Assembly (NCBI GenBank): GCA_017630405.1
Contig: JAGBVH010000015.1
Coordinates: 81,026 to 145,025 of the forward strand
Reading direction: 5' to 3'
DNA from: Alphaproteobacteria bacterium
Lineage (GTDB): Bacteria; Pseudomonadota; Alphaproteobacteria; Rs-D84
Length of the DNA stretch: 64,000 nt
The notes beneath the pieces were generated by a model that was given only the letters and a program-made list of their open reading frames with translations, did not search any database and was not told the origin of the DNA. Made by a program: the position numbers and the translations under genes. Numbering within the stretch: position 1 is the stretch's first letter; each line of letters starts with the position of its first letter. Positions 7,300-38,977 of this stretch are shown one piece after another.

Positions 7300-7458
7300 T
7301 TGTTTTCTCCATTTTTTATTTTTCATCATATCTGCGAAGAAAAATTATTCGTTTCTGCATTCTGCCCTAAATGCACAAAAGAACAATTTCATCTCCGCTG
7401 CCCTTGATTATAAAGTATATTTAGCGGTTTTCAAGCATTGTTTACATTATGGCATTGT

Positions 7459-7487
7459 TTGTAAGACGGGTGTTTTTGTGCTATAAT
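7459..7487 (+). promoter_or_regulatory. extended -10 promoter candidate for the ABC transporter gene
   Basis: TTGTAA (7459-7464), 17-nt spacer, TGcTATAAT (7479-7487). An AGGGG SD follows before the ATG at 7516. Confidence 0.4.
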
Positions 7488-7515
7488 AATCCCAATATTT
7501 ACACAGGGGTAAATT

Positions 7516-9279
7516 ATGCGTTTTCCAAAGACAGTAATGGGATTTTATATCAAGAACTTCTGGCGTTATTGTGGACCAGTTGCCCTGCTTTATTCCTTCT
7601 TTGCGATTGTGGATACCTTTGGCACATATGTTTTGCCGGCATATTATTTGAAAAAGTCGGTATCTATCCTTGAATCTGTGCCTGTTGCGGACGCTTTTTA
7701 TGTGCTTATACCAGTGGCTGGCGCATACTTTTTACTGCGTGGTTTTCAATGGTGTGCATCATTGTTGCGCTGGTTTACTTTTGACAAGTTTATTAAGTAT
7801 CCTTCATACAATAAAATTTCGACTGATTTATATCGCTATGTATTTTCCCAAAGTGCTGAATTTTATACAACTTCTATGCCGGGCAAAATAAACAGTCAAA
7901 TTCACAGAATTGCGGAATCGTTTTTCGAAACAGTCGAAATGATTTTTGGCAGTGTGACCGGTGCGCTTATCTCGTTTGTTATAACAGCAACCAGTTTATC
8001 GGCAATTGGCTGGCAATATACGCTTGTGATTACAGTTGCGGTTCTGTTTAGAATAGTTTGGGGAATTTTTACAATCAAGAAATCGTTGCGTATGGCGGGG
8101 AAACGGGCCGAAGCCTTAAACACTCTTCAGGGGCGTCTGTTAGATGCTTTATCTAACTTTATGGTTGTAAAAATGTTTGCGCGCACAGAATACGAACAAA
8201 ATTATGTTTCGCCAATTCGCAAAAAGTACGAGCGCGATGCGAACGCAGCGCATTTTTGGTCGCGCTTTTTCTGGGCTCCTGGTAATTTGGTAATGGACAC
8301 AATATGTTTTTCGTTGTTTATATTGCTGTCTGGATATATGTACAGTATTGGTCAGTCAACAATTGCGGACATATCCTTTGCGCTGGCTGTATACGCAGGA
8401 ATCAGTTCGGTTGCATTCGGTATTGTTATGAATATCAAGAACTTTACATCAAGTCTTGGCAATGCATCTGGTTCATATAATTCCTTAATTTGTCCGATTG
8501 CTATTAATGATGATGTTAATGCGCCGGATCTGAAAATCGGTGCTGCTACAATCCAGATTAAAAATCTGAAATTCAGATATAATAAAAAATATGTTCTGGA
8601 TAATTTATCTTTAGACATCAAGGCCGGTGAAAAAGTCGGGATTGTTGGTTTGTCTGGTGCGGGCAAAACTACATTGGTAAATTTGTTATTGCGTATGTAT
8701 GATCCGACAAGTGGTGAAATATCCATAGACGGGCAAAATATCAGGCATGTCACACAGGATTCGTTGCGTAAAAACATATCTTTTATTCCTCAGGATGCAA
8801 CGATGTTTAATCGCAGTATTTATGACAATATTGCTTATGGAAATATGTCTGCGAATAAAAATGATGTATTGCGTGCGGCAAAACTAGCATCTGCACATGA
8901 GTTTATAAAAAATACAACAAATGGCTATGATACATTGGTTGGTGATCGCGGAATTAAATTGTCGGGTGGTCAGCGTCAAAGAATTGCAATCGCACGCGCA
9001 TTTCTAAAAGATGCACCGATACTGATTTTGGACGAGGCAACAGCCGCGCTGGATTCTGAAACCGAGGCCACAATTCAAAAATCGTTTGAAGAATTGTCAC
9101 ATGGTCGCACAACGGTTGTTATCGCACATCGTCTTTCAACTTTGCGCAATATGGACCGCATTATTGTCTTGGATAAAGGGCGTATATTGGAAAGTGGTAC
9201 GCACACGAAATTGTTGCGCCAAAAAGGTTTGTATTCAAAATTATGGCAAATGCAATCTGGTGGATTTATTCAGGAATAA
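7516..9279 (+). CDS. ABC exporter, fused permease/ATPase (MsbA/multidrug type)
   Basis: N-terminal six-TM domain. Walker A GLSGAGKTT, signature LSGGQRQRIAIARA, Walker B ILILDEATAALD. Confidence 0.9.
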   Translation: MRFPKTVMGFYIKNFWRYCGPVALLYSFFAIVDTFGTYVLPAYYLKKSVSILESVPVADAFYVLIPVAGAYFLLRGFQWCASLLRWFTFDKFIKYPSYNKISTDLYRYVFSQSAEFYTTSMPGKINSQIHRIAESFFETVEMIFGSVTGALISFVITATSLSAIGWQYTLVITVAVLFRIVWGIFTIKKSLRMAGKRAEALNTLQGRLLDALSNFMVVKMFARTEYEQNYVSPIRKKYERDANAAHFWSRFFWAPGNLVMDTICFSLFILLSGYMYSIGQSTIADISFALAVYAGISSVAFGIVMNIKNFTSSLGNASGSYNSLICPIAINDDVNAPDLKIGAATIQIKNLKFRYNKKYVLDNLSLDIKAGEKVGIVGLSGAGKTTLVNLLLRMYDPTSGEISIDGQNIRHVTQDSLRKNISFIPQDATMFNRSIYDNIAYGNMSANKNDVLRAAKLASAHEFIKNTTNGYDTLVGDRGIKLSGGQRQRIAIARAFLKDAPILILDEATAALDSETEATIQKSFEELSHGRTTVVIAHRLSTLRNMDRIIVLDKGRILESGTHTKLLRQKGLYSKLWQMQSGGFIQE

Positions 9280-9308: not shown

Positions 9309-10311
9309 ATTCAACAGTTTTGTTTAATTCGTCCAGCAATCCTTGCAGTCTTGTTGTTGATTCTTCATCATTCAAAGCAACTGCGATTGTGTATGCTGAT
9401 TCCAAATCGCTGCGTGCGGCATCAATGTTGCCCAGCTTCAAATTCAATGCTGCGGACTTTTCAAAGTACATCATAGCATTGCTGGATTGTGCTTCACGAC
9501 CTTCCATTGTTGGTGTGCCAGCAATCTGTTCAGAAATCACGCGGATAGCAGAAGAGTAATCTTCAATTGCCTTGTCATATTCGCCCAATGCAACATATGC
9601 CTCTGCGCGTTCAGCGTAAACATCTGCAGATACAGAACCTTCTGGTCTGGCCAAAGAGTTTGTGTAATCAGCAACTGCGCCTTCCCAGTTTTTCAACCAC
9701 AGATTCAACTGGCCGCGTTTTGCGTACAAGTTGCGCATCTGTAATACTGCTGTTGGGTTTGTTGTGTTTGCTGCCAATGCGTTGTTGATATCTGCCAATG
9801 CTGCTGCATAATCTTCTACGCGTGCGTTCAGCAAAGAACGGTCATAGTACGCAACTGCATTTGTAGGATCTTTTACTAACGCTGCGTTAAAGTCAGCCAA
9901 TGCATTACGATAATCACCTGTCTGCATATACGCTTCTCCACGCAGAATATACGCATCAACCGAAGCAGCACCTGTATCGATTGCTGTTGCCAAATCAGTC
10001 AATGCTTCATCGATATTACCAGCAATCAGTTTTGCTTTACCTGTTTCGTAATAGTCATTTGCCTGCATTAAAACCTCTTCGGTAATATCCATATTGCCGG
10101 CATTTGGTTGTACATCATGACTGCGTCCTAAAATATAAAATGTTGCCGCAATAAAGAACAAAATAATGAACCAATAAACATAAATCGACAAAGACCAAGG
10201 TGCAGAGCAAGGTTTTGTTGATTGTGGTTTAATTGTTGCATTGGATGCTACAGGTCGCACCTTTACAGGCTTTTTTGTATTAACTGATTTTTTTGCAGGT
10301 GTTTTTTTCAT
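9307..10311 (-). CDS. membrane-anchored tetratricopeptide repeat protein
   Basis: Basic N-terminus, one TM helix (IYVYWFIILFFIAATFYIL), then about 7 TPR-like units (A..Y..RG.AY...G.Y..A..D.. repeated). Confidence 0.7.
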   Translation of the reverse strand: MKKTPAKKSVNTKKPVKVRPVASNATIKPQSTKPCSAPWSLSIYVYWFIILFFIAATFYILGRSHDVQPNAGNMDITEEVLMQANDYYETGKAKLIAGNIDEALTDLATAIDTGAASVDAYILRGEAYMQTGDYRNALADFNAALVKDPTNAVAYYDRSLLNARVEDYAAALADINNALAANTTNPTAVLQMRNLYAKRGQLNLWLKNWEGAVADYTNSLARPEGSVSADVYAERAEAYVALGEYDKAIEDYSSAIRVISEQIAGTPTMEGREAQSSNAMMYFEKSAALNLKLGNIDAARSDLESAYTIAVALNDEESTTRLQGLLDELNKTVE

Positions 10312-14117: not shown

Positions 14118-14996
14118 TTATTTGGTTAAACTGTCAACCAATTCATACATTTGTGTGCGCGTGGCAAACGATAGTGTTATTTGCCCTGCCCCGCCCCGCT
14201 TTTCGGTTAATTTGACTGGTACACACAATGCGGCCTTGATGCGAGATTCGATCTCGCGTACCGTTGCTGCATCGATAGTTTTTTGTTCGTGTTTGCGAGT
14301 GTTTTTTGCGCGTGGTGCGCTTTTTACCAGTTTGTCAGCTTCGGTCACAGACAGATTTTCTTTAACGATTTTGCGTGCCAATTCATCTGGATTTTCAGCC
14401 ACAGCAATTGTTCGCGCATGTGATGCGGACAGTTTACCCTGCTCTACCATTTCTTGTACAGTCAGCGGCAGTGTGGTTAGTCGCATAATGTTGCGAATAT
14501 AACTTTCGGATTTACCAATCAGTCGAACAACATCCGCTAATTCATATCCGCATTGATTCATCAGATTTTTATATGCGTTTGCTTCTTCGATTGGACTAAG
14601 GTTTTCACGCTGAACATTTTCAATCAGCGCAATTTCCATTGCGTTTTCGTTAGATAGTGTTTTTACCAATGCTGGTATTTCGTTAAGTCCAGCCAACTTG
14701 GATGCACGAAAACGACGCTCGCCTGCGACAATTTCGTACATATATGGCTGGCCTGTCACAGTGCGCAGTAAAATCGGCTGTAATACGCCCTTCTCTTTTA
14801 TAGATGCCGCCAAATCCGCCAATTCTTCATCTGCAAAGATTTTGCGTGGCTGATCTGGATTTGCACCAATTTGTACCAGTGGTATTTGCTTTACAATAAC
14901 GCGTTCGCTTGGTGTCAGCAGTGATATATCGGGAATGGTGCCTTTTGCTTGTTGCAGGTCGGCCAACCCGCGCCCTAGTCCAAATTTATTCGCCAT
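14118..14996 (-). CDS. parB: chromosome partitioning protein ParB
   Basis: ParB box IVAGERRFRASKLAGL, an HTH region, and N-terminal GLGRGL. The gene overlaps parA. Confidence 0.92.
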   Translation of the reverse strand: MANKFGLGRGLADLQQAKGTIPDISLLTPSERVIVKQIPLVQIGANPDQPRKIFADEELADLAASIKEKGVLQPILLRTVTGQPYMYEIVAGERRFRASKLAGLNEIPALVKTLSNENAMEIALIENVQRENLSPIEEANAYKNLMNQCGYELADVVRLIGKSESYIRNIMRLTTLPLTVQEMVEQGKLSASHARTIAVAENPDELARKIVKENLSVTEADKLVKSAPRAKNTRKHEQKTIDAATVREIESRIKAALCVPVKLTEKRGGAGQITLSFATRTQMYELVDSLTK

Positions 14997-15768
14997 ATGT
15001 CTCCCCTGTGGTTCTTTCTACAACTTCTGTTGCTACACGCAAATATGCCTGTGCGCCTGTTGAATTAAAGTCGTAAAATAATGCTGGTTTACCGTGACTT
15101 GGTGCCTCGGACACGCGGACATTACGCGGAACAACTGTTTTGAATACCAAATCACCAAATGTGTCGCGCACATCATTATCAACCGCGCGTGTTAATCCAT
15201 ATCGTTTGTCATACATAGTTAACAGCACGCCCAAAATATTCAGTTCAGGGTTCCATTTTTCTTTAACTATATTAATAGTGTCTGTTAACTGTTGTACACC
15301 TTCCAGTGCGAAGAATTCACACTGTAATGGCACGATAACAGAATCTGCGGCGGTTAACGCGTTAATTGTCAAATATCCCAGTGCTGGCGGACAGTCCAAC
15401 AATATATAATCATAATGTTGAAGTATTGGTTTAAGTGCATCGCGTAAACGAAACTCTTTGTTATCCATATCCAGTAAATCGATATCAGCGCCGGCCAGTG
15501 CTTGTGAAGATGGTAATATATGCATGCCCTGAACGGCGGTGGTCAGTATGTTGTCCGCGATGTTTGCGGTACCCATAATCACGCCATAAATGCTCTGGTG
15601 ATGTGATGCGCGAACAAATCCTAATCCTGTGCCAGCGTTGCCCTGTGGGTCCAAATCTATTAACAAAACGCGCTTTTTAATGGCGGCCAAAGACGCGCCA
15701 ATGTTGATGGCGGTTGTTGTTTTTCCTACCCCGCCCTTTTGATTAGCAAATGCTATTATTTTTGTCAT
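14986..15768 (-). CDS. parA: chromosome partitioning ATPase ParA
   Basis: Deviant Walker A NQKGGVGKTTTAINIGASLA, then LLIDLDPQGNA. Confidence 0.93.
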   Translation of the reverse strand: MTKIIAFANQKGGVGKTTTAINIGASLAAIKKRVLLIDLDPQGNAGTGLGFVRASHHQSIYGVIMGTANIADNILTTAVQGMHILPSSQALAGADIDLLDMDNKEFRLRDALKPILQHYDYILLDCPPALGYLTINALTAADSVIVPLQCEFFALEGVQQLTDTINIVKEKWNPELNILGVLLTMYDKRYGLTRAVDNDVRDTFGDLVFKTVVPRNVRVSEAPSHGKPALFYDFNSTGAQAYLRVATEVVERTTGETYGE

Positions 15769-15879
15769 TTTTCCTTTCCGATTTAATTTTTTTCAATTAT
15801 ACCTTATAAAATCCTGACGATTCGGTCAAGGTATTATATTTTGTTTTGTTGAATATAACTAAAAACAAAGCGTTATTCC

Positions 15880-15897
15880 TTATTTCATATGAAATAA
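15880..15897. promoter_or_regulatory. parS-like palindrome 1 (TTATTTCAT|ATGAAATAA)
   Basis: Perfect 18-bp palindrome. The central 16 nt match canonical parS TGTTTCACGTGAAACA at 11/16, with the TTTCA..TGAAA core retained. It lies in the parA-rsmG intergenic region. Confidence 0.4.
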
Positions 15898-15986
15898 AAA
15901 TATTGTTTTTGAATAAAAAATACCGGTGTTTGCCGGCTGTTTTGAATAAAAATGTTAAAAAAATAGTGTTTTCAATAAGTTGTAGT

Positions 15987-16004: not shown

Positions 16005-16562
16005 CCGGTGTTTTTGTATGGAAATGATAAATCCGTCACCTGTTTTGGATGGTGTTAATTCATAGTCGAATTTATATTTCTTTTTTGCGGTGGCAACTTC
16101 TGCTTCTATTTCCCGGCCTTTTAGCAGAAAAAGCCGGTAATTTGTTGGTGCGGTGTAATCCAGTATCTTAATCAGTGGTGCAAAAGCACGTGCGGTAAAT
16201 ACAAAATCATTCGATTTTGCCGGTAAATGCCGGACATAATCTTCGACCCTGCCATGAAAAATAGTCAGGTTTGGCAGGTTTAGTTCTTGTTTTAATGTCG
16301 ACAAAAACGATGCTTTTTTGCCGATTGATTCAATACAGGTGACATTCCATCCTAAAATTGCCAGTACGACCCCCGGAAACCCTGCCCCGCTGCCAAGATC
16401 GATTATTGATACATCTTTGGGTAAAATGTCGGCCAATTGTGCCGAGTCTGCAAAATGTCGATTTTCTATATCGTTAAGTGTGCTGGGCGCGACCAGATTC
16501 ATACGCGTTGACCAATCGCGCAACATATCAGCATACTGTTCAAATTTGACTTTATTGTTCAT
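16002..16562 (-). CDS. rsmG: 16S rRNA (guanine527-N7)-methyltransferase
   Basis: SAM-binding motif IDLGSGAGFPGVVLAI. GidB-like length and position next to parAB. Confidence 0.9.
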   Translation of the reverse strand: MNNKVKFEQYADMLRDWSTRMNLVAPSTLNDIENRHFADSAQLADILPKDVSIIDLGSGAGFPGVVLAILGWNVTCIESIGKKASFLSTLKQELNLPNLTIFHGRVEDYVRHLPAKSNDFVFTARAFAPLIKILDYTAPTNYRLFLLKGREIEAEVATAKKKYKFDYELTPSKTGDGFIISIQKHR

Positions 16563-30075: not shown

Positions 30076-30113
30076 GCCGGTGTAGCTCAGCTGGTAGAGC
30101 ATCTCATTCGTAA
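30076..30113 (+). pseudogene. tRNA-Thr(CGU) 5' fragment (acceptor 5' strand, D arm, 5' anticodon stem, anticodon loop)
   Basis: GCCGGTG TA GCTC AGCTGGT AGAGC A TCTCA TTCGTAA. The following sequence AGTCAGTCGG cannot pair with TCTCA. The matching 3' part lies at 36621-36665. Confidence 0.85.
30107..30113 (+). repeat. attL core TTCGTAA (the tRNA anticodon loop)
   Basis: Identical 7-mer at 36621-36627. Confidence 0.7.
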
Positions 30114-30179
30114 AGTCAGTCGGCAAATTTCCTAACCTATTGATTATCGTTGGATTTTAAGTTGTTTTTATTAACCAAA

Positions 30180-30317
30180 GGGACAATGCGGGGACATTTT
30201 TTACAAAAAAATGCAACAATTTGCATATATGTACAACACAATCTGATGTTGCTGCACACACTTAAAAACCGACTAAAATTTATGTGTTTTGCAGTGTAAT
30301 TGTCCCTTGTTTGTCCC
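30180..30317. repeat. left-end cluster of GGGACA / TGTCCC motifs (candidate integrase arm-type sites)
   Basis: GGGACA at 30180-30185 and 30191-30196. TGTCCC at 30301-30306 and 30312-30317. GGGACAAT (30180-30187) and ATTGTCCC (30299-30306) form an inverted pair. Confidence 0.5.
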
Positions 30318-30446
30318 TGTATATAAATCAACCTATCAAAACTAGCATATTATCGGGATTTTTTGGTGGTTAGTCATCTCATTGTATATGTTGAAATCAC
30401 CAAAAAACATCCTATATATTAACCAAATACAAAAGGATTATCCAAG

Positions 30447-31496
30447 ATGGCAACAATAGAAAAGCGCAAGAGTGGAGATGGTTTTGTTTATCGTGCACGT
30501 GTGCGTGTAAAGGGTGCTGAGCCCAGAACAGCGACATTCCCAAATAAGACACTTGCCAAGGCCTGGGCACAGAAGATAGAAGTCGAAATCAAAGAAGGGC
30601 AGTATATGCCCAGCATTCAATCACAAAAACGCACACTGGGCGAAATAATAAGCATTTACAAAGAAAGACATAATCCACTATCAATCACAACATCTGGACA
30701 GCTGGATGTATGGAACGAACAAATGGGCGCATGCAGTTTGAATATGATAACGCCAGACCGTATCTATAACACACTAAAAACGATAGAATCTATAACAACA
30801 CACAATGGACAACCAAAGTCCGCCAGCACATTAAACAGATATTTGGCGGTATTAAGTTCTGCATTAACTTTTGCAGTTAAAGAGTTGGGGTGGATGCGCG
30901 AAAATCCAGCCTTTAAAGTATCACGACGTAACGAGCCAAAGGGACGCGTCAGATTCTTGTCGGATGACGAACGCAACAGATTATTGACCGAGATACAAAA
31001 AGCACCAAACCCATTTTTATACCCAGCGGTTATATTGGCGATTTCAACAGGGGCAAGACGTGGCGAGATATTAAACCTAAAATGGGCAGATGTTGACTTA
31101 CATCGTGGCTGGGCAACGCTGCAAGACACCAAAAATGGCGACAGACGTGGTATTGCGTTGCGTGGTCTGGCATTAGACCTGATGCGCCAACTGTGGGCAA
31201 AGAGATTATCTAACATCTGGGTATTTCCAAACGAAACAAACTCTGGACCATTTAATATCAGATACAGCTGGAACAAAGCGGTTCGTGATGCAAATCTGAT
31301 AGATTTTAGATTTCACGACCTGCGACATACGTGTGCCAGCTATTTAATTATGAACGGTGCATCCCTGGGCGAAATTGCGGACGTTCTGGGACACAAAACA
31401 TTGCAGATGGTACAACGATATGCTCATATATCAGACAGCCACAAGGGTGGTGTTATTGAACGCATGAACGATAAAGTTTTCGGAGAATCAAAATGA
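30447..31496 (+). CDS. int: tyrosine-type site-specific integrase
   Basis: Catalytic signature ARRGEILNLKWADVD (R), FHDLRHTCAS (H-x-x-R), LGHKTLQMVQRYAH (H...Y). N-terminal SAM-like domain. Confidence 0.92.
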   Translation: MATIEKRKSGDGFVYRARVRVKGAEPRTATFPNKTLAKAWAQKIEVEIKEGQYMPSIQSQKRTLGEIISIYKERHNPLSITTSGQLDVWNEQMGACSLNMITPDRIYNTLKTIESITTHNGQPKSASTLNRYLAVLSSALTFAVKELGWMRENPAFKVSRRNEPKGRVRFLSDDERNRLLTEIQKAPNPFLYPAVILAISTGARRGEILNLKWADVDLHRGWATLQDTKNGDRRGIALRGLALDLMRQLWAKRLSNIWVFPNETNSGPFNIRYSWNKAVRDANLIDFRFHDLRHTCASYLIMNGASLGEIADVLGHKTLQMVQRYAHISDSHKGGVIERMNDKVFGESK

Positions 31497-32161
31497 CACA
31501 ACAATTACCTTTTGCCGATATTTTTCCACACTTGCATCCAATGCAAAAATTCACACAGTCCAACTATCCAATACTAGCTGATATTTTATTGGAATACGCA
31601 CAAGATTTGGCACACTATCGTGAAAACTATCTAGATGCCGACAGAATTACTAACGCACTGGATTGGATAAAACAACATGGCGATTTAGACCATAAAACAA
31701 TTAAATGCATCATCAAGCATTTTTGCATTCTTGACTTTAAATCAGATGTAAAAATTCAGACCCATAACAAACAATGGATTGTATGGTTATTCGTTATTGG
31801 TGCTTTCATCCTGATAAATCAAGCAATAGAAAATGACGACATCAATACCGTTAAAAGTGATATTCAAACATGCTTAAAAAACGCACATGACTATAAAAGA
31901 TTGTGGGGCGAAAGAAAAGGTCGTTATAAAGGCGCAAGCAAGACAAACGCCAAGAAAGCTGAAATAAAAAAAACAGTGCTAAAAATAACACGAGAAACAA
32001 ACAATGCAAACCCCGCCAAATCCGATGATGAAAAACTAATCATCATAAAAAACAAATTTAAAAAAACATCCCCCAACAGGGATTTCCCTTACAAAGATTC
32101 TAGTTTTACTAGAAACGATGACGCAAACATGTTTGCCCAGGCTGCAAAGCACAAGCCATAA
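31493..32161 (+). CDS. hypothetical protein (222 aa) with one central hydrophobic helix and Lys-rich C-terminus
   Basis: ATGA overlap with int. WIVWLFVIGAFILINQAI helix. No family recognised. Confidence 0.45.
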   Translation: MTQQLPFADIFPHLHPMQKFTQSNYPILADILLEYAQDLAHYRENYLDADRITNALDWIKQHGDLDHKTIKCIIKHFCILDFKSDVKIQTHNKQWIVWLFVIGAFILINQAIENDDINTVKSDIQTCLKNAHDYKRLWGERKGRYKGASKTNAKKAEIKKTVLKITRETNNANPAKSDDEKLIIIKNKFKKTSPNRDFPYKDSSFTRNDDANMFAQAAKHKP

Positions 32162-32266
32162 AGCCATCACGCTAGCGTTATGGGCAACCGCCTTGATAGG
32201 CGGTATTTTTGCATATATATTTGCCATGAATCCGGATTCGAACAATATCAAAATAAGGAGAAAAAT

Positions 32267-32497
32267 ATGGCAGAAATTGTGCCCAACTTTAAAACAATTC
32301 GGCAATTTGCTGAATCTTATCCTGCATTTACGCAGGGCTCGTTGCGTGATTTGGTGTTTTATGCGGACTATAACGGATTAAATCAATTTGATGCAATCCG
32401 TCGTGTCGGTGCAAAGATACTAATAAACGTTGATAATTTCTTTCGGTGGGTTGATACAAACCCTGCAAGCAAAGGAGGGTTAAATGCAAGAATTTGA
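32267..32497 (+). CDS. excisionase/AlpA-like helix-turn-helix DNA-binding protein (76 aa)
   Basis: Strong SD AAGGAG 7 nt upstream. KTIRQFAE...LRDLV....IRRVGAKILINVDNFFRWV matches the ..GR(K/R)(I/W)LI......W pattern of excisionase-family HTH proteins. The track start at 32180 is judged too early. Confidence 0.5.
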   Translation: MAEIVPNFKTIRQFAESYPAFTQGSLRDLVFYADYNGLNQFDAIRRVGAKILINVDNFFRWVDTNPASKGGLNARI

Positions 32498-33548
32498 CCC
32501 ACAATACGAAAGTGATTATCTGGACAACATCACAGGCGATGATGATATGGACAACACCGTTCAAAAACCGAACATCTTTTCTGTTGGCGATTTATTGGAC
32601 ATGGATTTACCAGAAATCAAATGGCTGCTGTATCCATTTATTCCACAAAAGGGTGTTTGTATGATTTCCGCACCACGCGGTGTCGGGAAATCGTTCTTGG
32701 CGATGACAATGGCTATTTCAATCGCATCATCTATTGACTTTCTGGGTTTCAAAACGGAACAACAATACAAAGTCCTTTATATAGATGGCGAAATGAACGG
32801 CAAGATGCTGCAAGAACGTTTTTCTAAGCTGATTGACGGCATGGAAAAAGATGGCGCAACTGTTAATCGTGAAAATCTAAAAATATTCGGATGCGATTTT
32901 CAGGGTCGTTCATCTATGCCAGATATGTCAAAGCCAGCGCACTGGCGTATCATAGAAAACGCTATCAACAGCATTGGCGGTGTTGACCTTATCATTCTTG
33001 ATAATGTGTTTACCCTGTACGGTTGCCAGGATGAAAATGCAGCATCCAGCTGGCAGGCATTTAACCGATGGTCTGTCAGCCAGCGCATACAAAATCGTTC
33101 TGTCTTGTGGATACACCATACGGGCAAGGATACAGAAAAGGGCGGACGTGGTTCGTCAGCGATTGAAACGCTGATGGATTCGTCCATACTGCTAAAAAGG
33201 CCTGCTGGATATAACCAACAAGATGGCGCAGCGGTTGTTGTAGAATACACAAAAAGCCGCAGCGTTGCTGGCGATGCGGTTGCAAAATTTGCAATCAAAT
33301 TGTGTGGCACAGATAATATACTTTATTGGACAGTCGCAAAAACAGACGAGCAGTCCGAATTGGACGACTTGTTGGATTTTGTCGATAACAAAGGGATGGA
33401 CGTGTCGGAAATCTCAAAAGAAACAGGTATGTCCAAATCTGCACTTTATCGAAAATTCCAGGCAGCTGGAATAAAGGATGTATCCGCACGCGCAAAGCTC
33501 GCCAAACAAAAACAAGCTGAAGACACAAAATCTTTAATTGATATTTAA
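32484..33548 (+). CDS. RepA-like RecA-fold ATPase (AAA_25-type) with C-terminal HTH
   Basis: Walker A ISAPRGVGKSFLAMTMAISIA, Walker B LIILDNVF, WIHHTGKDTEKGGRGSSA sensor region, and C-terminal MDVSEISKETGMSKSALYRKF. Confidence 0.65.
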   Translation: MQEFDPQYESDYLDNITGDDDMDNTVQKPNIFSVGDLLDMDLPEIKWLLYPFIPQKGVCMISAPRGVGKSFLAMTMAISIASSIDFLGFKTEQQYKVLYIDGEMNGKMLQERFSKLIDGMEKDGATVNRENLKIFGCDFQGRSSMPDMSKPAHWRIIENAINSIGGVDLIILDNVFTLYGCQDENAASSWQAFNRWSVSQRIQNRSVLWIHHTGKDTEKGGRGSSAIETLMDSSILLKRPAGYNQQDGAAVVVEYTKSRSVAGDAVAKFAIKLCGTDNILYWTVAKTDEQSELDDLLDFVDNKGMDVSEISKETGMSKSALYRKFQAAGIKDVSARAKLAKQKQAEDTKSLIDI

Positions 33549-33635
33549 TAGCAAGAAAAATCCCATTTTCCCACCCTATTAAGGTACGGGAAAATGGGAA
33601 TTGTGTTTTTGTCCGTTTTTTGTGGATAGTTTTAA

Positions 33636-33896
33636 TCAAATATACTTAGGTTTGCTCTGACGTGGTTCTGTCCGGTATAATTCTTCTGCAATTCTATAAC
33701 TTTCTTTTACTACATAGTTTAATGCTTCTTTTTCTGTTGTGAACCTTCCCACTTCACCACCAGCAACAATAACGACATATTCTATCCCATTAGGTATAAC
33801 AATGTACATTTTTGATACTTCTTTAGCCTTATTATACAGCCAACGTTCTCGTTTCGCTGTATTCACAATCCCCCTAGCCATATTTATCAACCCCAT
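33636..33896 (-). CDS. hypothetical small protein (86 aa)
   Basis: ORF in the minus-strand cargo block. No motif recognised, and the start is uncertain (internal MYIVIPNG possible). Confidence 0.3.
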   Translation of the reverse strand: MGLINMARGIVNTAKRERWLYNKAKEVSKMYIVIPNGIEYVVIVAGGEVGRFTTEKEALNYVVKESYRIAEELYRTEPRQSKPKYI

Positions 33897-33931
33897 ATTA
33901 TTCCTCCTTATTTACAGTATAAACATTTTAG

Positions 33932-34135
33932 TTACCACTCTTCTATTAACATATAAATCCAGCATAAAGCTAGCCAAGCTACAATGGACCACACTCCACT
34001 TCGAAACAATATTTTTATTACTTTACCAACAACCTGGGATTCTTTAACTGTTGTCCCGGCGTTCTTAAAACCACGGCCAATTTTATAAAAAAATCTATCA
34101 ATTGCGTTCTCTGGAATATGTTCTTTTTTCATCAT
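33932..34135 (-). CDS. hypothetical small membrane protein (67 aa)
   Basis: C-terminal TM helix VWSIVAWLALCWIYMLI. Starts 3 nt after the stop of the upstream gene. Confidence 0.35.
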   Translation of the reverse strand: MMKKEHIPENAIDRFFYKIGRGFKNAGTTVKESQVVGKVIKILFRSGVWSIVAWLALCWIYMLIEEW

Positions 34136-34138
34136 TCA

Positions 34139-34912
34139 CTACCTTGTTTTAGATGCCAGAATCATACAAAAAACAAACAACGCTATATAAATCATAGAAA
34201 ATACAGGTGCGTCAAATATTGCAACCAAAACACTAACTATGCCGCCGCATATAACAATATGCTTACCGGTTTCTCTATCGTGTTTACGTGCAATAGATGC
34301 AGGTATAAAAAACAATAACATTCCACCTAGTATGCGACCTAAAATTATCGCCGATAGTTTTGTGTCTTTTTCCGTTATATCCGTATACGAAACATGGGTT
34401 GTTTCACGAAGTTTTTGTTCCGCTTCTTCTGATAGTATGGGTGAAGCAATGTCTGAAACAATTTTACCCGGGACATTTATGGAAGAACGAACTATCCCTT
34501 GCGCCATAGACTCTTTTTGTTTTGAGCCAAGCGTTTTATATCCAGCCCAATCCATATCCTTAACACCATCAACATTATTTACAAACAAAAGCATTGCTTT
34601 TTGCATCTTATTCTCGTGCGTGTTTTCTATTGCTATCGGTTTTACTGGGCTATACTTTACTTTTAAATATTTGTGCGTTCTGTCGTCTGGCAGGTCTGCA
34701 TACAGCTTTCGACCCGGACTTACGATACCGCCAGTATAAGGCATGCCATCATCAGGATTGTCTGTTATTACAACACCACGTTTTTCATTCATTGGGATTT
34801 CTGCCCATCTGCCGTCTTCATACACAACCCTACGCTCCAGTGAGATAGCGGGTGTACATAACGAACCAATTAACAAACACACAAAAAGCATATTGTGTAT
34901 AATCTTATTCAT
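34139..34912 (-). CDS. hypothetical exported protein with C-terminal multi-TM anchor (257 aa)
   Basis: Start at MNKIIHNMLFVCLLIGSLCTPAIS (signal peptide), preceded by a GGAG SD. The C-terminal third has about 3 TM helices. The track ORF extends to 34978 across a terminator hairpin. Confidence 0.45.
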   Translation of the reverse strand: MNKIIHNMLFVCLLIGSLCTPAISLERRVVYEDGRWAEIPMNEKRGVVITDNPDDGMPYTGGIVSPGRKLYADLPDDRTHKYLKVKYSPVKPIAIENTHENKMQKAMLLFVNNVDGVKDMDWAGYKTLGSKQKESMAQGIVRSSINVPGKIVSDIASPILSEEAEQKLRETTHVSYTDITEKDTKLSAIILGRILGGMLLFFIPASIARKHDRETGKHIVICGGIVSVLVAIFDAPVFSMIYIALFVFCMILASKTR

Positions 34913-34929
34913 TTTTGCTCCATTTATAT

Positions 34930-34959
34930 AAAAACAACCGCCATGGGAATTATGGCGGT
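34930..34959 (-). terminator. intrinsic terminator abutting the SD of the 34139..34912 gene
   Basis: 8-bp stem ACCGCCAT/ATGGCGGT (34937-34944 / 34952-34959). The minus strand reads hairpin, then TGTTTTTAT, then AAATGGAGCAAAAATG. Confidence 0.55.
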
Positions 34960-35365
34960 CGGGTGCTTTCAAAATCATAACATGAATGACCCTGTTGCTT
35001 TCGGATAAATCCTATTATATAACAACAGACACCCGGCCAATAAGGTCAGGCAATAACGGTGCGATGCACCATAATGGAATCACGATGCAAACGCACCGCA
35101 TGTTATGGGGTTTGAAAGCCCCGAATCCAATTCCCATCGGATTCATATCTAATTATATCAGGAAAATATGCAAATGTAAAATTTTGATAACCATACTATG
35201 CACCACCCTAAAATTTTTGATGGGGGACCTAGGGGTATCAAATTATAAAGAACAACAAACAATCCCCATGCTAACGCACAGAGATTGTTTCAATGACGAC
35301 TATTAAAATGGTCTGACTATATTTGCCTACACAGCATGCTATCTGCTAAAAAATTAACAATCGTT

Positions 35366-35722
35366 TTAATTTTTATAAAAATACTGCAACGATATTTTCC
35401 AAAGTGCGAACACTTCTGCAAGAGACCCTAAAATAAAACTCACTTGACCAGCAACAGGGAACTCAAGACAACCTGCACCAATTAAAACAAAAACAATACC
35501 TGTAAATACCAGCCACACTATGGATAAAACAACCAAAACCCATGATATTTTATTTCTTATTTTTCTGTTTTCGTCTTGGATGCGATATTCAAGTCCACGC
35601 TTGTACGAATCAAATTCTTCTTTAGAAAATTTCTGCTGATAATCTTTTGGGTCTTTACGAATCCCCTTTAAACCTTTATCTAACAAAGACCCTAATTCTT
35701 CAGAATAATTTTTGATACCCAT
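35366..35722 (-). CDS. small 2-TM protein (118 aa), candidate toxin/effector partner of the Panacea-domain gene
   Basis: Soluble charged N-terminal half, basic stretch RKIRNK, then two TM helices (ISWVLVVLSIVWLVFTGIVFVLIGAG and VSFILGSLAEVFALW). The start codon directly follows the stop of 35723..36223. Confidence 0.45.
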   Translation of the reverse strand: MGIKNYSEELGSLLDKGLKGIRKDPKDYQQKFSKEEFDSYKRGLEYRIQDENRKIRNKISWVLVVLSIVWLVFTGIVFVLIGAGCLEFPVAGQVSFILGSLAEVFALWKISLQYFYKN

Positions 35723-36223
35723 CTATTTACTCCAAAGGTCTTCAAACTCTTTCTTCATATCTTCTTCAGATATAACACAGCTGTTTCTGTTGTTAGAATA
35801 TACTTTTTTCCACGCAGAACCATCTCTATGAGTAAGCCCAACAAGCTCCCAATCTTTAATGTTTTTTGTCATATTGGCAACAGCATCTATGAAAGCACAC
35901 TCATCTTCGCTGCAAGATGTTAAATTTTCACCAAACGCTATCTCAGGAATATAGTCAGAACCAAAAAACTTAAATCTTTGATAAACTTCTGGAACAACAG
36001 GTCCATATTTCCAGGCCTGAATCTCCGCATTGAATAGATGTTTGCCATTTCGAAGTCCCAAAGACAAAACCTGTGCAATATAAAGAATTTTTTGCAAACG
36101 CAAATTCGTTACTTGCCATTTCTGGCTTTCACAAATCTTTTTTGCAACCTTAAACACATCACACATTTTCGCTGACCTGGGGTTATATTTACCGTTTCTC
36201 TCTTTGAGAGAATTATACCACAA
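35723..36223 (-). CDS. Panacea / DUF4065 (SocA-GepA-like) domain protein
   Basis: LRLQKILYIAQVLSLGLRNGKHLFNAEIQAWKYGPVVPEVYQRFKFFG matches the characteristic KLQKLLYYAQ...F.AW..GPV.PEVY..FK..G core. An alternative start MCDVFK lies at 36166. Confidence 0.7.
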   Translation of the reverse strand: MWYNSLKERNGKYNPRSAKMCDVFKVAKKICESQKWQVTNLRLQKILYIAQVLSLGLRNGKHLFNAEIQAWKYGPVVPEVYQRFKFFGSDYIPEIAFGENLTSCSEDECAFIDAVANMTKNIKDWELVGLTHRDGSAWKKVYSNNRNSCVISEEDMKKEFEDLWSK

Positions 36224-36254
36224 ATGGCAAAAAAAATCAATACAAATGATATGA

Positions 36255-36330
36255 TGGTGCCGGTGATAAGACTTGAACTTACGACCTTTGCATTACGAAT
36301 GCACTGCTCTACCAGCTGAGCTACACCGGC
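36255..36330 (-). tRNA. tRNA-Thr (anticodon CGT), complete, carried inside the element
   Basis: The reverse complement reads GCCGGTG TA GCTC AGCTGGT AGAGC A GTGCA TTCGTAA TGCAA AGGTC GTAAG TTCAAGT CTTAT CACCGGC ACCA. The first 26 nt are identical to the split host gene. Confidence 0.9.
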
Positions 36331-36397
36331 AACATCGGGCAGTATATCCTATCATCAAAACAATTTCAAGCATCCGTTTTAGGATTTTATAAAATAA

Positions 36398-36501
36398 ATT
36401 GTCCCCTGACGGAAACTGACCAAAAACACATGAATAAAGCAGCCATAAACATCCACCAGCAAGCAATCCAGCGCAATCTGGCCAGGGACACTATAGGGAC
36501 A
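36398..36501. repeat. right-end cluster of TGTCCC / GGGACA motifs (candidate arm-type sites)
   Basis: ATTGTCCC at 36398-36405. GGGACA at 36485-36490 and 36496-36501. Confidence 0.45.
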
Positions 36502-36620
36502 AAACGCTGCATAAACTGCAGCGAATTACAATTAGCTACAATCATAAAAAAACAACAAAAACCGCGGTAATCCGCTTGATTTTTGTTGCAGATTGTTGTA
36601 GATTACACATAGTGCTATCC

Positions 36621-36627
36621 TTCGTAA
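36621..36627 (+). repeat. attR core TTCGTAA
   Basis: Direct repeat of 30107-30113. Confidence 0.7.
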
Positions 36628-36665
36628 TGAGGGGGTCGCAGGTTCAAGTCCTGTCACCGGCACCA
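36621..36665 (+). pseudogene. tRNA-Thr(CGU) 3' fragment (anticodon loop, 3' anticodon stem, variable loop, T arm, acceptor 3' strand, CCA)
   Basis: TTCGTAA TGAGG GGGTC GCAGG TTCAAGT CCTGT CACCGGC ACCA. TGAGG pairs with TCTCA, and CACCGGC with GCCGGTG, of the 30076-30113 fragment. Confidence 0.85.
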
Positions 36666-36673
36666 TAATTAAA

Positions 36674-36695
36674 ACGCCCATTTGGGCGTTTTTTA
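36674..36695 (+). terminator. intrinsic terminator of the (split) tRNA-Thr gene
   Basis: Hairpin ACGCCC-ATTT-GGGCGT followed by a T-run. Confidence 0.7.
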
Positions 36696-36753
36696 TTTTT
36701 TTATGGTAAAAAATATGATAAAATACAAGGGATATAATGTATGGGGGATTATA

Positions 36754-38112
36754 ATGTCCAAGGAAATAAAATATTATTTTGACAAATCACAATATCTTTA
36801 TCATAAGGCTGACAGACCGTCGGTGGAAACAATTGGTGTCATAGTTTATTCTGGTGTTTATGGTCGGGGATATCATCCAGACAAAGATAAAGGTGTTGAA
36901 CTCGATCCTTTTAATCAAAGAAATGTACTGAAACATGTTTCGGAATATGTATCCAAAAATGTGACCAAAATAAAGTTTTCCAAGGATATGTCGGTCAATG
37001 ATGCTTTACATGTTATTTATACCCAGATTGGCAATCCAAAAGAAGAAGAAAAAATAGACAAGCTGATTCATGAACATTTTGCCAAATTGAAAGTCTATAA
37101 TGAAAAAATGGTCGATTATGAAAGTTATCGTAACCTGATTAATATGGTCGAATACTATACGCCAGAGGGTATAAGGGCGATGGTCAATGGCGAAAAGTAT
37201 CCTTTAAAGGCCGCAGTACATGATTTTGCGCGCGGTGTGGACAGAAAGAAGTTTCAGGCTTCTTTTGACAAACTACCTACTTATTTAAAACGTCGTTTTC
37301 GCAGTTTGTGTGAAAAGAATAACTATGTATTAACCGATGATTTATTATCTCAGGATTTTAAGCCGTTGGCGCTTGACCGTTTAAGGCCGACAATGGATGA
37401 TGGTATTAGTGTTGATGCTTTGATTGGGCGTACCGCCGATGAATTCTTGCGCGATGCGGCCAAATACAAGTATTATAAATTAACTGGTAATATGGATATC
37501 TTTTTATCAAAGTTCGAACAGATGTCCATAGACGCTATGTCTGATCATGAACTGGCAATAAAGTATGGTGCTTATGCGACCCAGCGTTATGAAAACGCCC
37601 TTATTGTCAAAAAACATATAGAATCCCTTGCGGAACAAAATAAAGACATATCGAATTTCATTGGCGAATTGTATAATTACAGTGTTCGCGCCACAACCAG
37701 TTATTGTAATCCAGATATTGTTCGAATGATGTATGAAACAATAAAAAAGTACAACAACAAGTTCAAGCAATCCAAACAGGTTATGCAGTATATGGGACTG
37801 TTGTACAATGTGACATTGGATGGCAAACTTCGTCGTGATATTTCCGAAACATTTGGAATCAAGCCGGATGAAACCCGTGCGCGTACCAAAATGTCAAAAC
37901 AACGCGTTAAGCAATCATTAAGAAAAGCGGAAAAGCGTATATCTTCTGGTGATTATGTTTTTGATGGCGCTGTTCAGCAAGAGGTTATAGCACTAGAAGA
38001 AAAATATGGTATGAGTTCTGGCCCTGAAACATTTGGCAAGGTCAAGAAACTGATCAAGCCAACGAAAACGCAAATGAAAATAGCAAAAGAGTTTTCGGAA
38101 CGCAGCAAATAA
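36754..38112 (+). CDS. hypothetical protein (452 aa)
   Basis: Start at MSKEIKYY, preceded by GGGGGA. Lys/Tyr/Asn-rich, with no catalytic motif recognised. The track ORF begins at 36682. Confidence 0.5.
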   Translation: MSKEIKYYFDKSQYLYHKADRPSVETIGVIVYSGVYGRGYHPDKDKGVELDPFNQRNVLKHVSEYVSKNVTKIKFSKDMSVNDALHVIYTQIGNPKEEEKIDKLIHEHFAKLKVYNEKMVDYESYRNLINMVEYYTPEGIRAMVNGEKYPLKAAVHDFARGVDRKKFQASFDKLPTYLKRRFRSLCEKNNYVLTDDLLSQDFKPLALDRLRPTMDDGISVDALIGRTADEFLRDAAKYKYYKLTGNMDIFLSKFEQMSIDAMSDHELAIKYGAYATQRYENALIVKKHIESLAEQNKDISNFIGELYNYSVRATTSYCNPDIVRMMYETIKKYNNKFKQSKQVMQYMGLLYNVTLDGKLRRDISETFGIKPDETRARTKMSKQRVKQSLRKAEKRISSGDYVFDGAVQQEVIALEEKYGMSSGPETFGKVKKLIKPTKTQMKIAKEFSERSK

Positions 38113-38116
38113 AACA

Positions 38117-38140
38117 ACCGCCCAATGGGCGGTTTGTTTT
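38117..38140. terminator. bidirectional intrinsic terminator between convergent hypothetical genes
   Basis: Hairpin ACCGCC(C)-AAT-(G)GGCGGT followed by TTTGTTTT. Confidence 0.6.
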
Positions 38141-38146
38141 ATTTAC

Positions 38147-38977
38147 TTATTTTGTTTTTGCTTTTTGTAATTCGGCTGATATTTCGTTTGCAAGCTGTTT
38201 GATACGCGCTGCTTCTTGTTCGGCATATTGTGCATCTACTGCAATCTCGATAGCTGCCTGAACATATATCATCAGCTCAACAGGAATCGAGCCAATCCTT
38301 TTACAAAGAGGCCCGGCCTGTGTTTGAGTCTTTTTATAGATTGCGCCATCTTCGGTTATATGATAATTGCCGACAGTTGTTGTTATAAACGTTGTATCTT
38401 CTATAGACAAAGTCTGATATTTTTTAATTTCTACAACTTTTATCAATTCCAACAAATCGCCTAATCCTGCTTTGATGAATTTGTCTTTTATTTTTGGATT
38501 GGCGTTGATTATATCTTCGCGTGCTGCTTTGAATGCTGCTTTGAATTCAGCATCGCGTATTTTTTGTCTCTCGATTTCTTCCTGGCGCGCGATTTCGTCT
38601 TTAGCTGCCTTTACCATATCTTCATAGGCTTTGATGCGTGCTTTACCATTTTTCTGCGCACTGTCTGTCATCTCATTAAATATCACACCAGGTAAACTAT
38701 ATGCGGCGTGAAAATCGTCTTGGATAATCTTCCAATTACGTTTTCGTGCAGAACGTTTTTCTGAGGCATAATCCTCGCGCCAACAAGGGTTGTTGGTACG
38801 ATATTCCTGGTCAGGTTTTTTTGGGAAATGACCTTTTTTAATTAAGTCCGCGACGGATACTGTGCAACCAACTGCCGGTGCAATTGCAAATGTTGTCACA
38901 GCCACAATAACGGCACCACTAGTATACAAAACTTTTTCCGCGCCGTTTTTCCATTTAATCTTTGTTATTTCTTCCAT
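38147..38977 (-). CDS. hypothetical protein with N-terminal hydrophobic segment and central coiled-coil (276 aa)
   Basis: VLYTSGAVIVAVTTFAIAPAVG hydrophobic segment. Charged helical stretch KAAKDEIARQEEIERQKIRDAEFKAAFKAARED. No family recognised. Confidence 0.5.
   Translation of the reverse strand: MEEITKIKWKNGAEKVLYTSGAVIVAVTTFAIAPAVGCTVSVADLIKKGHFPKKPDQEYRTNNPCWREDYASEKRSARKRNWKIIQDDFHAAYSLPGVIFNEMTDSAQKNGKARIKAYEDMVKAAKDEIARQEEIERQKIRDAEFKAAFKAAREDIINANPKIKDKFIKAGLGDLLELIKVVEIKKYQTLSIEDTTFITTTVGNYHITEDGAIYKKTQTQAGPLCKRIGSIPVELMIYVQAAIEIAVDAQYAEQEAARIKQLANEISAELQKAKTK

Follow-up and report, generated by a model that had tools for sequence, protein, structure and literature searches.

Organization of the panA and panT genes

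The window analysed here is a 64,000-nt stretch of contig JAGBVH010000015.1 (positions 81,026 to 145,025; GenBank assembly GCA_017630405.1, Alphaproteobacteria bacterium), to which all coordinates given below refer unless another locus is named. Two adjoining genes of its minus strand, called here panA and panT, are located at one edge of an integrative element. The first of them, panA (35723-36166), encodes a predicted stand-alone Panacea (DUF4065, PF13274) antitoxin of 147 amino acids (aa) without any extra N-terminal domain, and the second, panT (35366-35722), encodes a candidate membrane toxin of 118 aa, an assignment based on hydropathy, AlphaFold2 modelling, family alignments and remote homology to toxin cluster T3 of the PanAT systems. 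Contig JAGBXO010000002.1, with which the window shares 100% identity, belongs to a metagenome-assembled genome (MAG) from yak colon, Alphaproteobacteria bacterium RGIG9538.

The maximal reading of the panA open reading frame (ORF) covers 35723-36223 (minus strand) and starts at a TTG codon, yielding 166 aa, and this was the product assumed in an earlier note written from the DNA letters. Between the 3' end of the element tRNA (36255) and an ATG codon at 36166, a promoter-like site was found at 36240-36212 (minus strand), in which TTGATT is separated by 17 nt from TATAAT, with 10 of 12 matches to the consensus and with a TG before the second hexamer, a feature of extended -10 promoters. Because the TTG at 36223 sits within this site, and because the PanA homologues are 145-158 aa long and begin with MCDVFKVAK, the true start of panA is almost certainly the ATG at 36166. 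The panT ORF starts at an ATG, and the junction between both genes reads ...AAA TAG ATG GGT..., in such a way that the panA stop abuts the panT start with a spacing of 0 nt, exactly as the earlier note had read it. A GGAG Shine-Dalgarno motif is found 7 nt 5' of the panT ATG, and 76 nt past the panT stop there is a terminator-like hairpin (35257-35290, minus strand) with a 15-pair stem, including 5 G-C pairs, and the T-rich tail GTTGTTCTTT. With these predicted sites, panAT is a compact module in which promoter, panA, panT and terminator follow one another.

PanA matches the Pfam family PF13274 (SocA_Panacea) over profile positions 1-113 of 113, with E = 1e-18 and 68.7 bits where the gathering score is 25.7, so that the profile search proposed in the earlier note for the upstream protein bears out the DUF4065/Panacea core, the 166-aa start being the part of that claim that was not sustained. 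The protein also matches phrog_1281 at 7e-40, and an identical protein is named 'SocA family protein' by NCBI. Both motifs quoted for the original assignment, LQKILYIAQ and AWKYGPVVPEVYQRFKFFG, are contained in PanA, and the W-x-[YF]-G-P-V signature of Panacea is present as AWKYGPVVPEVY; the mutagenesis primers used for V. harveyi PanA encode KFGPVVPSVY in turn (PMC8832971 supplement). When 18 homologues were compared, N21, Q25, K26, L28, Y29, A51, W52, Y54, G55, P56, V57, Y62, L108, H113, W119 and I132 were invariant, the conserved blocks being NLRLQK..Y, AW.YGPV and H113.

The AlphaFold2 model of PanA (mean pLDDT 93.9, pTM 0.91) contains eight helical segments and two strands, 50-52 and 55-57, which make up a beta hairpin (residues 50-57). 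As modelled, the protein agrees with the published description of the Panacea fold as alpha1-alpha7 plus beta1-beta2 (PMC10440598), and no match of PanA to solved structures was found, either by sequence or by fold. A stand-alone Panacea protein neutralises the Bartonella membrane toxin directly, by contacts with its N-terminal region and with a short helix before the transmembrane segment (Ernits et al. 2023, PMC10440598), and the substitutions Y56A and H120E abolish this neutralisation (PMC10440598). Judged by their place in the conserved core, Y54 and H113 of the window PanA are likely the equivalents of these two residues.

Among the NCBIfam models, the top match of PanA was SocA_antitoxin (1.2e-21). 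This match brings in a reading in which PanA would hand PanT to a protease, for instance ClpXP or FtsH, for constant degradation, as in the type VI system SocAB of Caulobacter crescentus, where SocA, also a Panacea antitoxin from an alphaproteobacterial host, acts as a ClpXP adaptor (PMC8832971). Binding and proteolysis are, moreover, not necessarily exclusive (Kurata et al., PMC8832971). However, the 77.2 bits scored by the window PanA are far below the equivalog cut-off of 190, the partner is a predicted membrane protein and not the soluble replication inhibitor SocB (cluster T10), and the PanAs tested by Kurata et al. neutralise independently of ClpXP and Lon and pull down their own toxins (PMC8832971). 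A SocA-like mode of action is thus regarded as quite improbable for this pair.

Residues 1-58 of PanT are charged, with 15 K/R and 11 D/E, and end in RKIRNK. They are followed by a strongly hydrophobic segment (residues 59-84, Kyte-Doolittle maximum of 2.98 over 19 residues) and by a moderately hydrophobic one (residues 92-115, maximum of 1.6), which includes the invariant residue E103. An AlphaFold2 model obtained from a 40-sequence alignment has helices at 6-22, 35-82 and 90-116, with pLDDT values of 84-89 over the hairpin and of around 45-54 in the N-terminal part. The charged half, the RKIRNK stretch and the two closely spaced transmembrane helices that had been described from the translation alone were recovered both by hydropathy and as a hairpin in the model. 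By the positive-inside rule, both ends of PanT should be cytoplasmic and the short loop EFPVAGQ should be outside. No Pfam, NCBIfam or PADLOC model was matched by PanT (PADLOC at E up to 1), and its C-terminal half gave a weak match (E = 9.5e-5) to phrog_5346, of unknown function.

Conservation of the pair and relation of PanT to cluster T3

A PF13274 gene was found directly upstream of the PanT homologues P0002, P0006 and P0009 among called genes, and a Panacea gene is likewise located upstream of the distant homologues of Niastella populi and Pontibacter silvestris and of those in two further loci (L043 and L044). When a PanA profile built from homologues of the window PanA was scanned over all ORFs of 37 loci, a same-strand PanA ORF was detected immediately upstream of the toxin gene in all 34 loci with at least 400 nt of upstream sequence, whereas the three loci without PanA have <75 nt of upstream sequence. 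These 34 loci span Alphaproteobacteria MAGs, Niastella, Pontibacter and metagenomes, and the flanks of the pair vary otherwise, with tRNA-Thr islands, IS1595, IS110 and IS1 neighbours or housekeeping genes. Therefore, panA and panT move as a unit and are not a chance adjacency of ORFs, this being the outcome of the neighbourhood analysis that the earlier note had asked for. Separately, a PanA gene was observed to be followed by, and to share one base with, that of a 132-aa protein with a charged N-terminus and two helices on the Shewanella khirikhana plasmid NZ_CP143083.1 (L039, 1501-2381); this pair adjoins Tn7-like TnsA and transposase genes, and its match to the family profile is weak (15.3 bits).

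Of the other species representatives, a single one carries a close PanT homologue, and it is likewise an Alphaproteobacteria MAG; a word-seeded search returned nine close PanT clusters with 46-99% identity. About nine clusters at 90% identity are known of the subfamily, all of them from metagenomes or metagenome-assembled genomes, and both of the taxonomically labelled genome records that carry it are Alphaproteobacteria MAGs. In the nine-cluster alignment the hairpin is far more conserved than the N-terminus, and GSL.EVFALWKISL.YF is invariant, including E103; the motif of the subfamily, GSLAEVFALWKISLQYFY, puts a charged E and a charged K in the second helix. When this alignment was used for an exhaustive HMMER search of 1.84 billion representatives, it detected 126 clusters (50% identity level) at E up to 1e-3, 20 of them at E up to 1e-10, all of around 95-200 aa, and a second search with a 74-sequence profile detected 456 clusters at 90% identity. 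The approximately 30 best-scoring members share a layout in which a charged region at the N-terminus precedes two helices, the first with a basic residue and then "..S..WL.FT", and the second with "LSD.V.IAFITTSL.TV.GLW.IGL.YFF".

Between close relatives, PanA is 80-82% identical compared to 58-62% for PanT, and the divergence of PanT is unevenly distributed, with 28-38% identity over residues 1-39, 79-84% over residues 40-58 and 68-75% over the hairpin. As residues 40-58 are conserved while residues 1-39 diverge, this comparison suggests that PanA is more likely to contact the juxtamembrane helix.

The link to a named toxin cluster is provided by the survey of Kurata et al. (2022), in which 88 toxin clusters adjoining Panacea genes were described (PMC8832971). 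The membrane toxins validated there come from E. coli STEC O31 (cluster T3; PanA WP_000287252.1 with PanT WP_000019185.1), Bartonella apis (T12) and Helicobacter (T4), and those of T3 and T12 depolarise and permeabilise (SYTOX) the E. coli membrane and are neutralised by PanA (PMC8832971). One member of the family described above, P0158, which matches the family profile at 3.5e-19, is protein WP_081164616.1 of Niastella populi. This same protein is listed in Dataset S1 as T3, in the order A|T, with an overlap of -4 and with WP_081164617.1 as partner PanA, the T3 label appearing at least 106 times in this dataset, in rows labelled 'noNTD' and 'A|T' and with gaps of -8 to 22 (PMC8832971).

When the alignment of the window subfamily was compared by hhalign to that of the Niastella-type proteins, a probability of 95.8% (E = 7.9e-9) was obtained over 72 columns with 18% identity, in a span that covers the juxtamembrane helix and the two membrane helices. 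Since membrane proteins may score by composition alone, a shuffle control was carried out in which residues were permuted within each architectural segment (2000 shuffles). The Niastella protein scored 32.3 bits against the window-subfamily profile, whereas the maximum reached by its shuffles was 15.3 bits; in the other direction, the window PanT scored 19.4 bits against the Niastella profile, ranking 2 of 2001 (shuffle mean 1.4, standard deviation 3.3). By these profile comparisons, the homology between the window PanT and the Niastella T3 protein is considered real but remote, and PanT, which the earlier note had not placed in any named toxin family, is a remote relative of cluster T3.

A member of cluster T12, YP_003344835.1 of Aggregatibacter phage S1249, was assayed in the same way and reached 7.2 bits compared to 6.1 bits for the best of 500 shuffles. 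Because this is no better than shuffles, membership in T12 was rejected, and the relation of PanT predicted from its profile scores is to T3, not to T12. Between the PanAs of the window and of phage S1249, identity is 30%. An E. coli plasmid PanA (H8) and a P. aeruginosa PanA were also considered and were discarded, their partners being different, soluble proteins.

The pair shares with the T3 PanATs the antitoxin-then-toxin order, the abutting or overlapping genes and a PanA without N-terminal domain (PMC8832971). In contrast, the window subfamily is only around 18% identical to the Niastella T3 proteins, has its own motif in the second helix and is tied to an element that splits a tRNA-Thr gene. 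Similarities were also found with the PanT(T12/D11):PanA pair of Bartonella choladocola (apis), in which the Panacea protein likewise stands alone and the toxin, small and membrane-depolarising, combines a charged N-terminus with a C-terminal transmembrane region (PMC8832971, PMC10440598), its counterpart in the window being a predicted one.

Antitoxin exchange and the proposed function of PanAT

In two loci, one from Elusimicrobiaceae (L045, 3487-4366) and the other on an IMG/VR viral contig (L046, 2349-3273), a member of the toxin family is encoded directly downstream of an M78 peptidase and not of PanA. The toxin member paired with the M78 peptidase matches the window-subfamily profile with E = 4e-11 (whole library), the peptidase is a small, ImmA/IrrE-like protein with an HExxH motif, and both pairs adjoin an integrase. 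In the Elusimicrobiaceae locus the peptidase matches the PADLOC models capP (4.8e-24) and RmrA (1.5e-13). As far as can be read from these gene arrangements, this indicates that the toxin family swaps antitoxin partners, between PanA and the M78 peptidase, as in the networks mapped by NetFlax. The arrangement resembles RosmerTA (RmrT/RmrA), whose toxin is small and membrane-depolarising, in that PanT relatives stand behind an ImmA/RmrA-like M78 peptidase, whereas the window has PanA and not M78, and its two proteins gave no PADLOC match to RmrT or RmrA.

At 7195-8096 of the Elusimicrobiaceae locus, 3 kb from the M78-toxin pair, a second Panacea gene was observed, followed by a 150-aa partner with a weak PADLOC match to NsnC (1.7e-5), which suggests that several toxin-antitoxin or defence-like pairs form a small island next to the integrase.

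All things considered, the window pair is probably a PanA-PanT toxin-antitoxin operon of type II whose membrane toxin is T3-like, and the Pfam match, the co-conservation, the homology to a PanT cluster and the mapped ends of the carrier element support the toxin-antitoxin character that the earlier note had suggested. By analogy with the systems compared, we infer for panAT toxicity, membrane topology, pore formation, direct binding and an element-stabilising role, in the following manner. The operon would be transcribed from the promoter just past the element tRNA-Thr, possibly with read-through from the tRNA promoter; panA would be translated first, and panT would be translationally coupled to it through the TAG-ATG junction, with its own GGAG. 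The charged N-terminal half and the basic juxtamembrane helix of PanT would be in the cytoplasm, and the two-helix hairpin would insert in the inner membrane with both ends cytoplasmic. The conserved polar residues of the hairpin, which are E103 and K109 in the subfamily but runs of Ser/Thr across the wider family, may support oligomerisation and an ion leak, which would collapse the membrane potential and stop growth, as for the E. coli T3 member. Since in the Bartonella model the Panacea protein contacts the region before the transmembrane segment, PanA is proposed to bind the N-terminal and juxtamembrane part of PanT directly and to hold it inactive, and PanT would be freed once the supply of PanA ends upon loss of the element, or once PanA is inactivated.

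Several points weigh against this proposal. The T3 link is remote, the aligned columns being 18% identical, it is made via one listed member and not via the tested E. coli protein, and one of the two shuffle directions reaches only around the 1-in-1000 level. The second helix of PanT is of moderate hydrophobicity only, and confidence is low in the N-terminal part of its model, the mean pLDDT of the whole model being 67. In addition, PanA is more conserved than PanT, which would be unusual if the whole N-terminal half of PanT were the binding surface, and some predicted PanTs are non-toxic in E. coli (PMC8832971).

This last observation also speaks for an interpretation of PanT as a harmless membrane protein, such as an anchor or partner of PanA or a superinfection-exclusion or holin-like protein, to which the placement of the subfamily by sequence alone and the weak match to phrog_5346 can be added. 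Nevertheless, PanT matched no holin family, and among 74 members of the toxin family only one reached a holin model (Phage_holin_Dp1, at 0.009), scattered sub-threshold matches to membrane proteins being all that was found when these 74 members were compared to Pfam. Furthermore, the gene is invariably the second one and abuts or overlaps an antitoxin-type gene, PanT is homologous to a cluster that includes a validated toxin, and PanA is replaced by an M78 peptidase in some lineages, as is typical of toxins. A non-toxic PanT is therefore considered very improbable.

A different interpretation retains the molecular parts of the proposed toxin-antitoxin operon and changes its trigger and its biological role. 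In it, the pair would act primarily in abortive infection, with the Panacea protein sensing a phage cue and releasing the depolarising toxin before the phage cycle is completed. The position of the pair on the margin of a small integrative element agrees with such a role, as do the toxin-family members paired with ImmA/RmrA-like M78 peptidases beside integrases; Ernits et al. favour Panacea as a sensor (PMC10440598), and the membrane-depolarising toxin of the RosmerTA system protects against phage (Ernits et al.). On the contrary, no PADLOC-DB 2.0 model was matched by PanA or PanT (E up to 0.1, and up to 1 for PanT), no other recognisable defence genes adjoin the pair, and no phage protection by membrane-toxin PanATs is reported in the PanAT literature compared. 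A tblastn search of the window PanT against 50,697 phage records was also empty, and no match was obtained when phage and plasmid records were searched by tblastn with this PanT, with P0033 and with the Niastella T3 protein, nor was any relative detected when viral contigs were scanned with the close-family alignment. Thus, of the two possibilities left side by side in the earlier note, the toxin-antitoxin one is supported, whereas abortive infection received no direct support, the PADLOC search being empty, and an indirect hint only from the toxin relatives paired with M78 peptidases, so that a primary role in defence appears unlikely.

The tRNA-Thr-splitting carrier element

The integrative element that carries panAT extends over 6.5 kb, from 30114 to 36620, and splits a chromosomal tRNA-Thr(CGT) gene of the plus strand at its anticodon loop, as established by cross-genome blastn and direct reading. 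The 5' half of this gene (nt 1-38; 30076-30113, plus strand) forms the left junction and ends in the anticodon-loop sequence TTCGTAA, with which the 3' part at the right junction also starts (nt 32-76; 36621-36665, plus strand), and the joined halves make a 76-nt cloverleaf. A complete tRNA-Thr(CGT), detected by ARAGORN at 36255-36330 (minus strand), is carried by the element in inverted orientation, directly upstream of panA. The two tRNAs are 85.5% identical, and their differences in the T stem and in the anticodon stem (CTCA/TGAG in the chromosomal tRNA vs. TGCA/TGCA in the element tRNA) are compensatory. A search for direct repeats as att sites found nothing, because nothing but the 7-bp anticodon loop is common to both junctions and because the element tRNA is inverted, and the ends were located by cross-genome blastn instead. 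With the ends mapped, the earlier placement of the pair in mobile-element cargo, right after the element tRNA, is confirmed.

At the left end of the element there is a tyrosine integrase gene (30447-31496, plus strand; Pfam PF00589, E = 4e-29), followed by two genes of unknown function, a gene for an AAA_25 protein (32484-33548), three minus-strand genes for small or membrane proteins, panT, panA and the tRNA. The same tRNA precedes panA in five other loci (L004, L005, L007, L012 and L013), in two of which (L004 and L007) the same native fragment also lies inverted, upstream of this tRNA, and the integrase is 65.6% identical at the nucleotide level to that of the equivalent element of L012. 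The same layout with other cargo (DUF3631) was found in GCA_949111565.1 (L041, 9009-16267), inserted between the same chromosomal neighbours as in the window, ileS and mnmG. In this genome the native 3' part of the tRNA is at 9009-9053, the integrase at 14862-15914 and the native 5' half at 16227-16267, while the element tRNA, transferred from L012, is placed at approximately 9419-9494, with a blastn match over 9426-9494. Given the same layout with different cargo in the window and in this second genome, tRNA-Thr, panA, panT and integrase are therefore conserved parts of a family of elements with variable cargo. Between the window and L004 (5395-5470) the element tRNA-Thr was observed to be 100% identical, compared to 62% for PanT and around 73% for ileS (DNA).

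Another promoter-like site precedes the element tRNA (36369-36341) and the stretch from this tRNA to panA showed no terminator-like site, so that read-through from the tRNA promoter into panAT is possible, as far as these predicted sites indicate. The organisation of the element recalls the tRNA-dependent lysogeny of actinobacteriophages, in which a tRNA gene is also split by integration and a replacement tRNA is carried (Guerrero-Bustamante and Hatfull 2024, PMC10865867). In contrast to that system, the carrier here is of 6.5-7 kb and contains no genes recognisable as those of a phage, an alphaproteobacterium of the gut is the host, the anticodon loop is the place of the crossover, and the replacement tRNA adjoins a toxin-antitoxin module. 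A further proposal, which at present we consider unlikely, is that tRNA-Thr(CGT) and panAT constitute a conserved, possibly co-transcribed end module of tRNA-Thr-splitting elements. Such a module would hold the host both through the replaced tRNA and through a toxin whose antitoxin supply is tied to the tRNA promoter, or else would have the Panacea protein sense an attacking phage and then set off the toxin.

Two other features were noted in and beside the element. The three minus-strand genes (33636-34978) form an operon-like run behind a promoter-like site at 35180-35152, the best of the region (11 of 12 matches, with a TG), and encode proteins of 279 aa, with hydrophobic segments near both ends as seen by eye, 67 aa, with a hydrophobic C-terminal stretch also recognised by eye, and 86 aa; no Pfam, PHROG, PADLOC or NCBIfam family was found for this run. 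Two large genes with unknown function (36682-38977), for proteins of 476 aa (plus strand) and 276 aa (minus strand) and with a GC content of about 0.37-0.39, are located between the element's right junction and ileS. The corresponding interval of L004, L007, L012 and L041 lacks both genes, which may represent a second, independent insertion.

The pair itself is of an already described kind, a Panacea antitoxin with a small membrane-spanning toxin, and is real and fairly ordinary. It adds to the large PanAT catalogue a divergent subfamily, so far from metagenomes and MAGs of uncultured Alphaproteobacteria, and the T3-like membrane toxin family to which it leads, with at least 126 clusters when grouped at 50% identity and 456 when grouped at 90%, is far larger than curated models cover. 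The exchange between PanA and the M78 peptidase fits the partner-swapping network of type II systems, and it is this exchange, together with the carrier element, that most deserves closer attention. The carrier is a more useful lead than the pair, being a compact, apparently non-phage element that destroys a tRNA gene by its integration and brings its own replacement. If the proposed end module proved true, tRNA-dependent lysogeny would extend past actinobacteriophages to non-phage elements and would be mechanistically tied to a toxin-antitoxin module.

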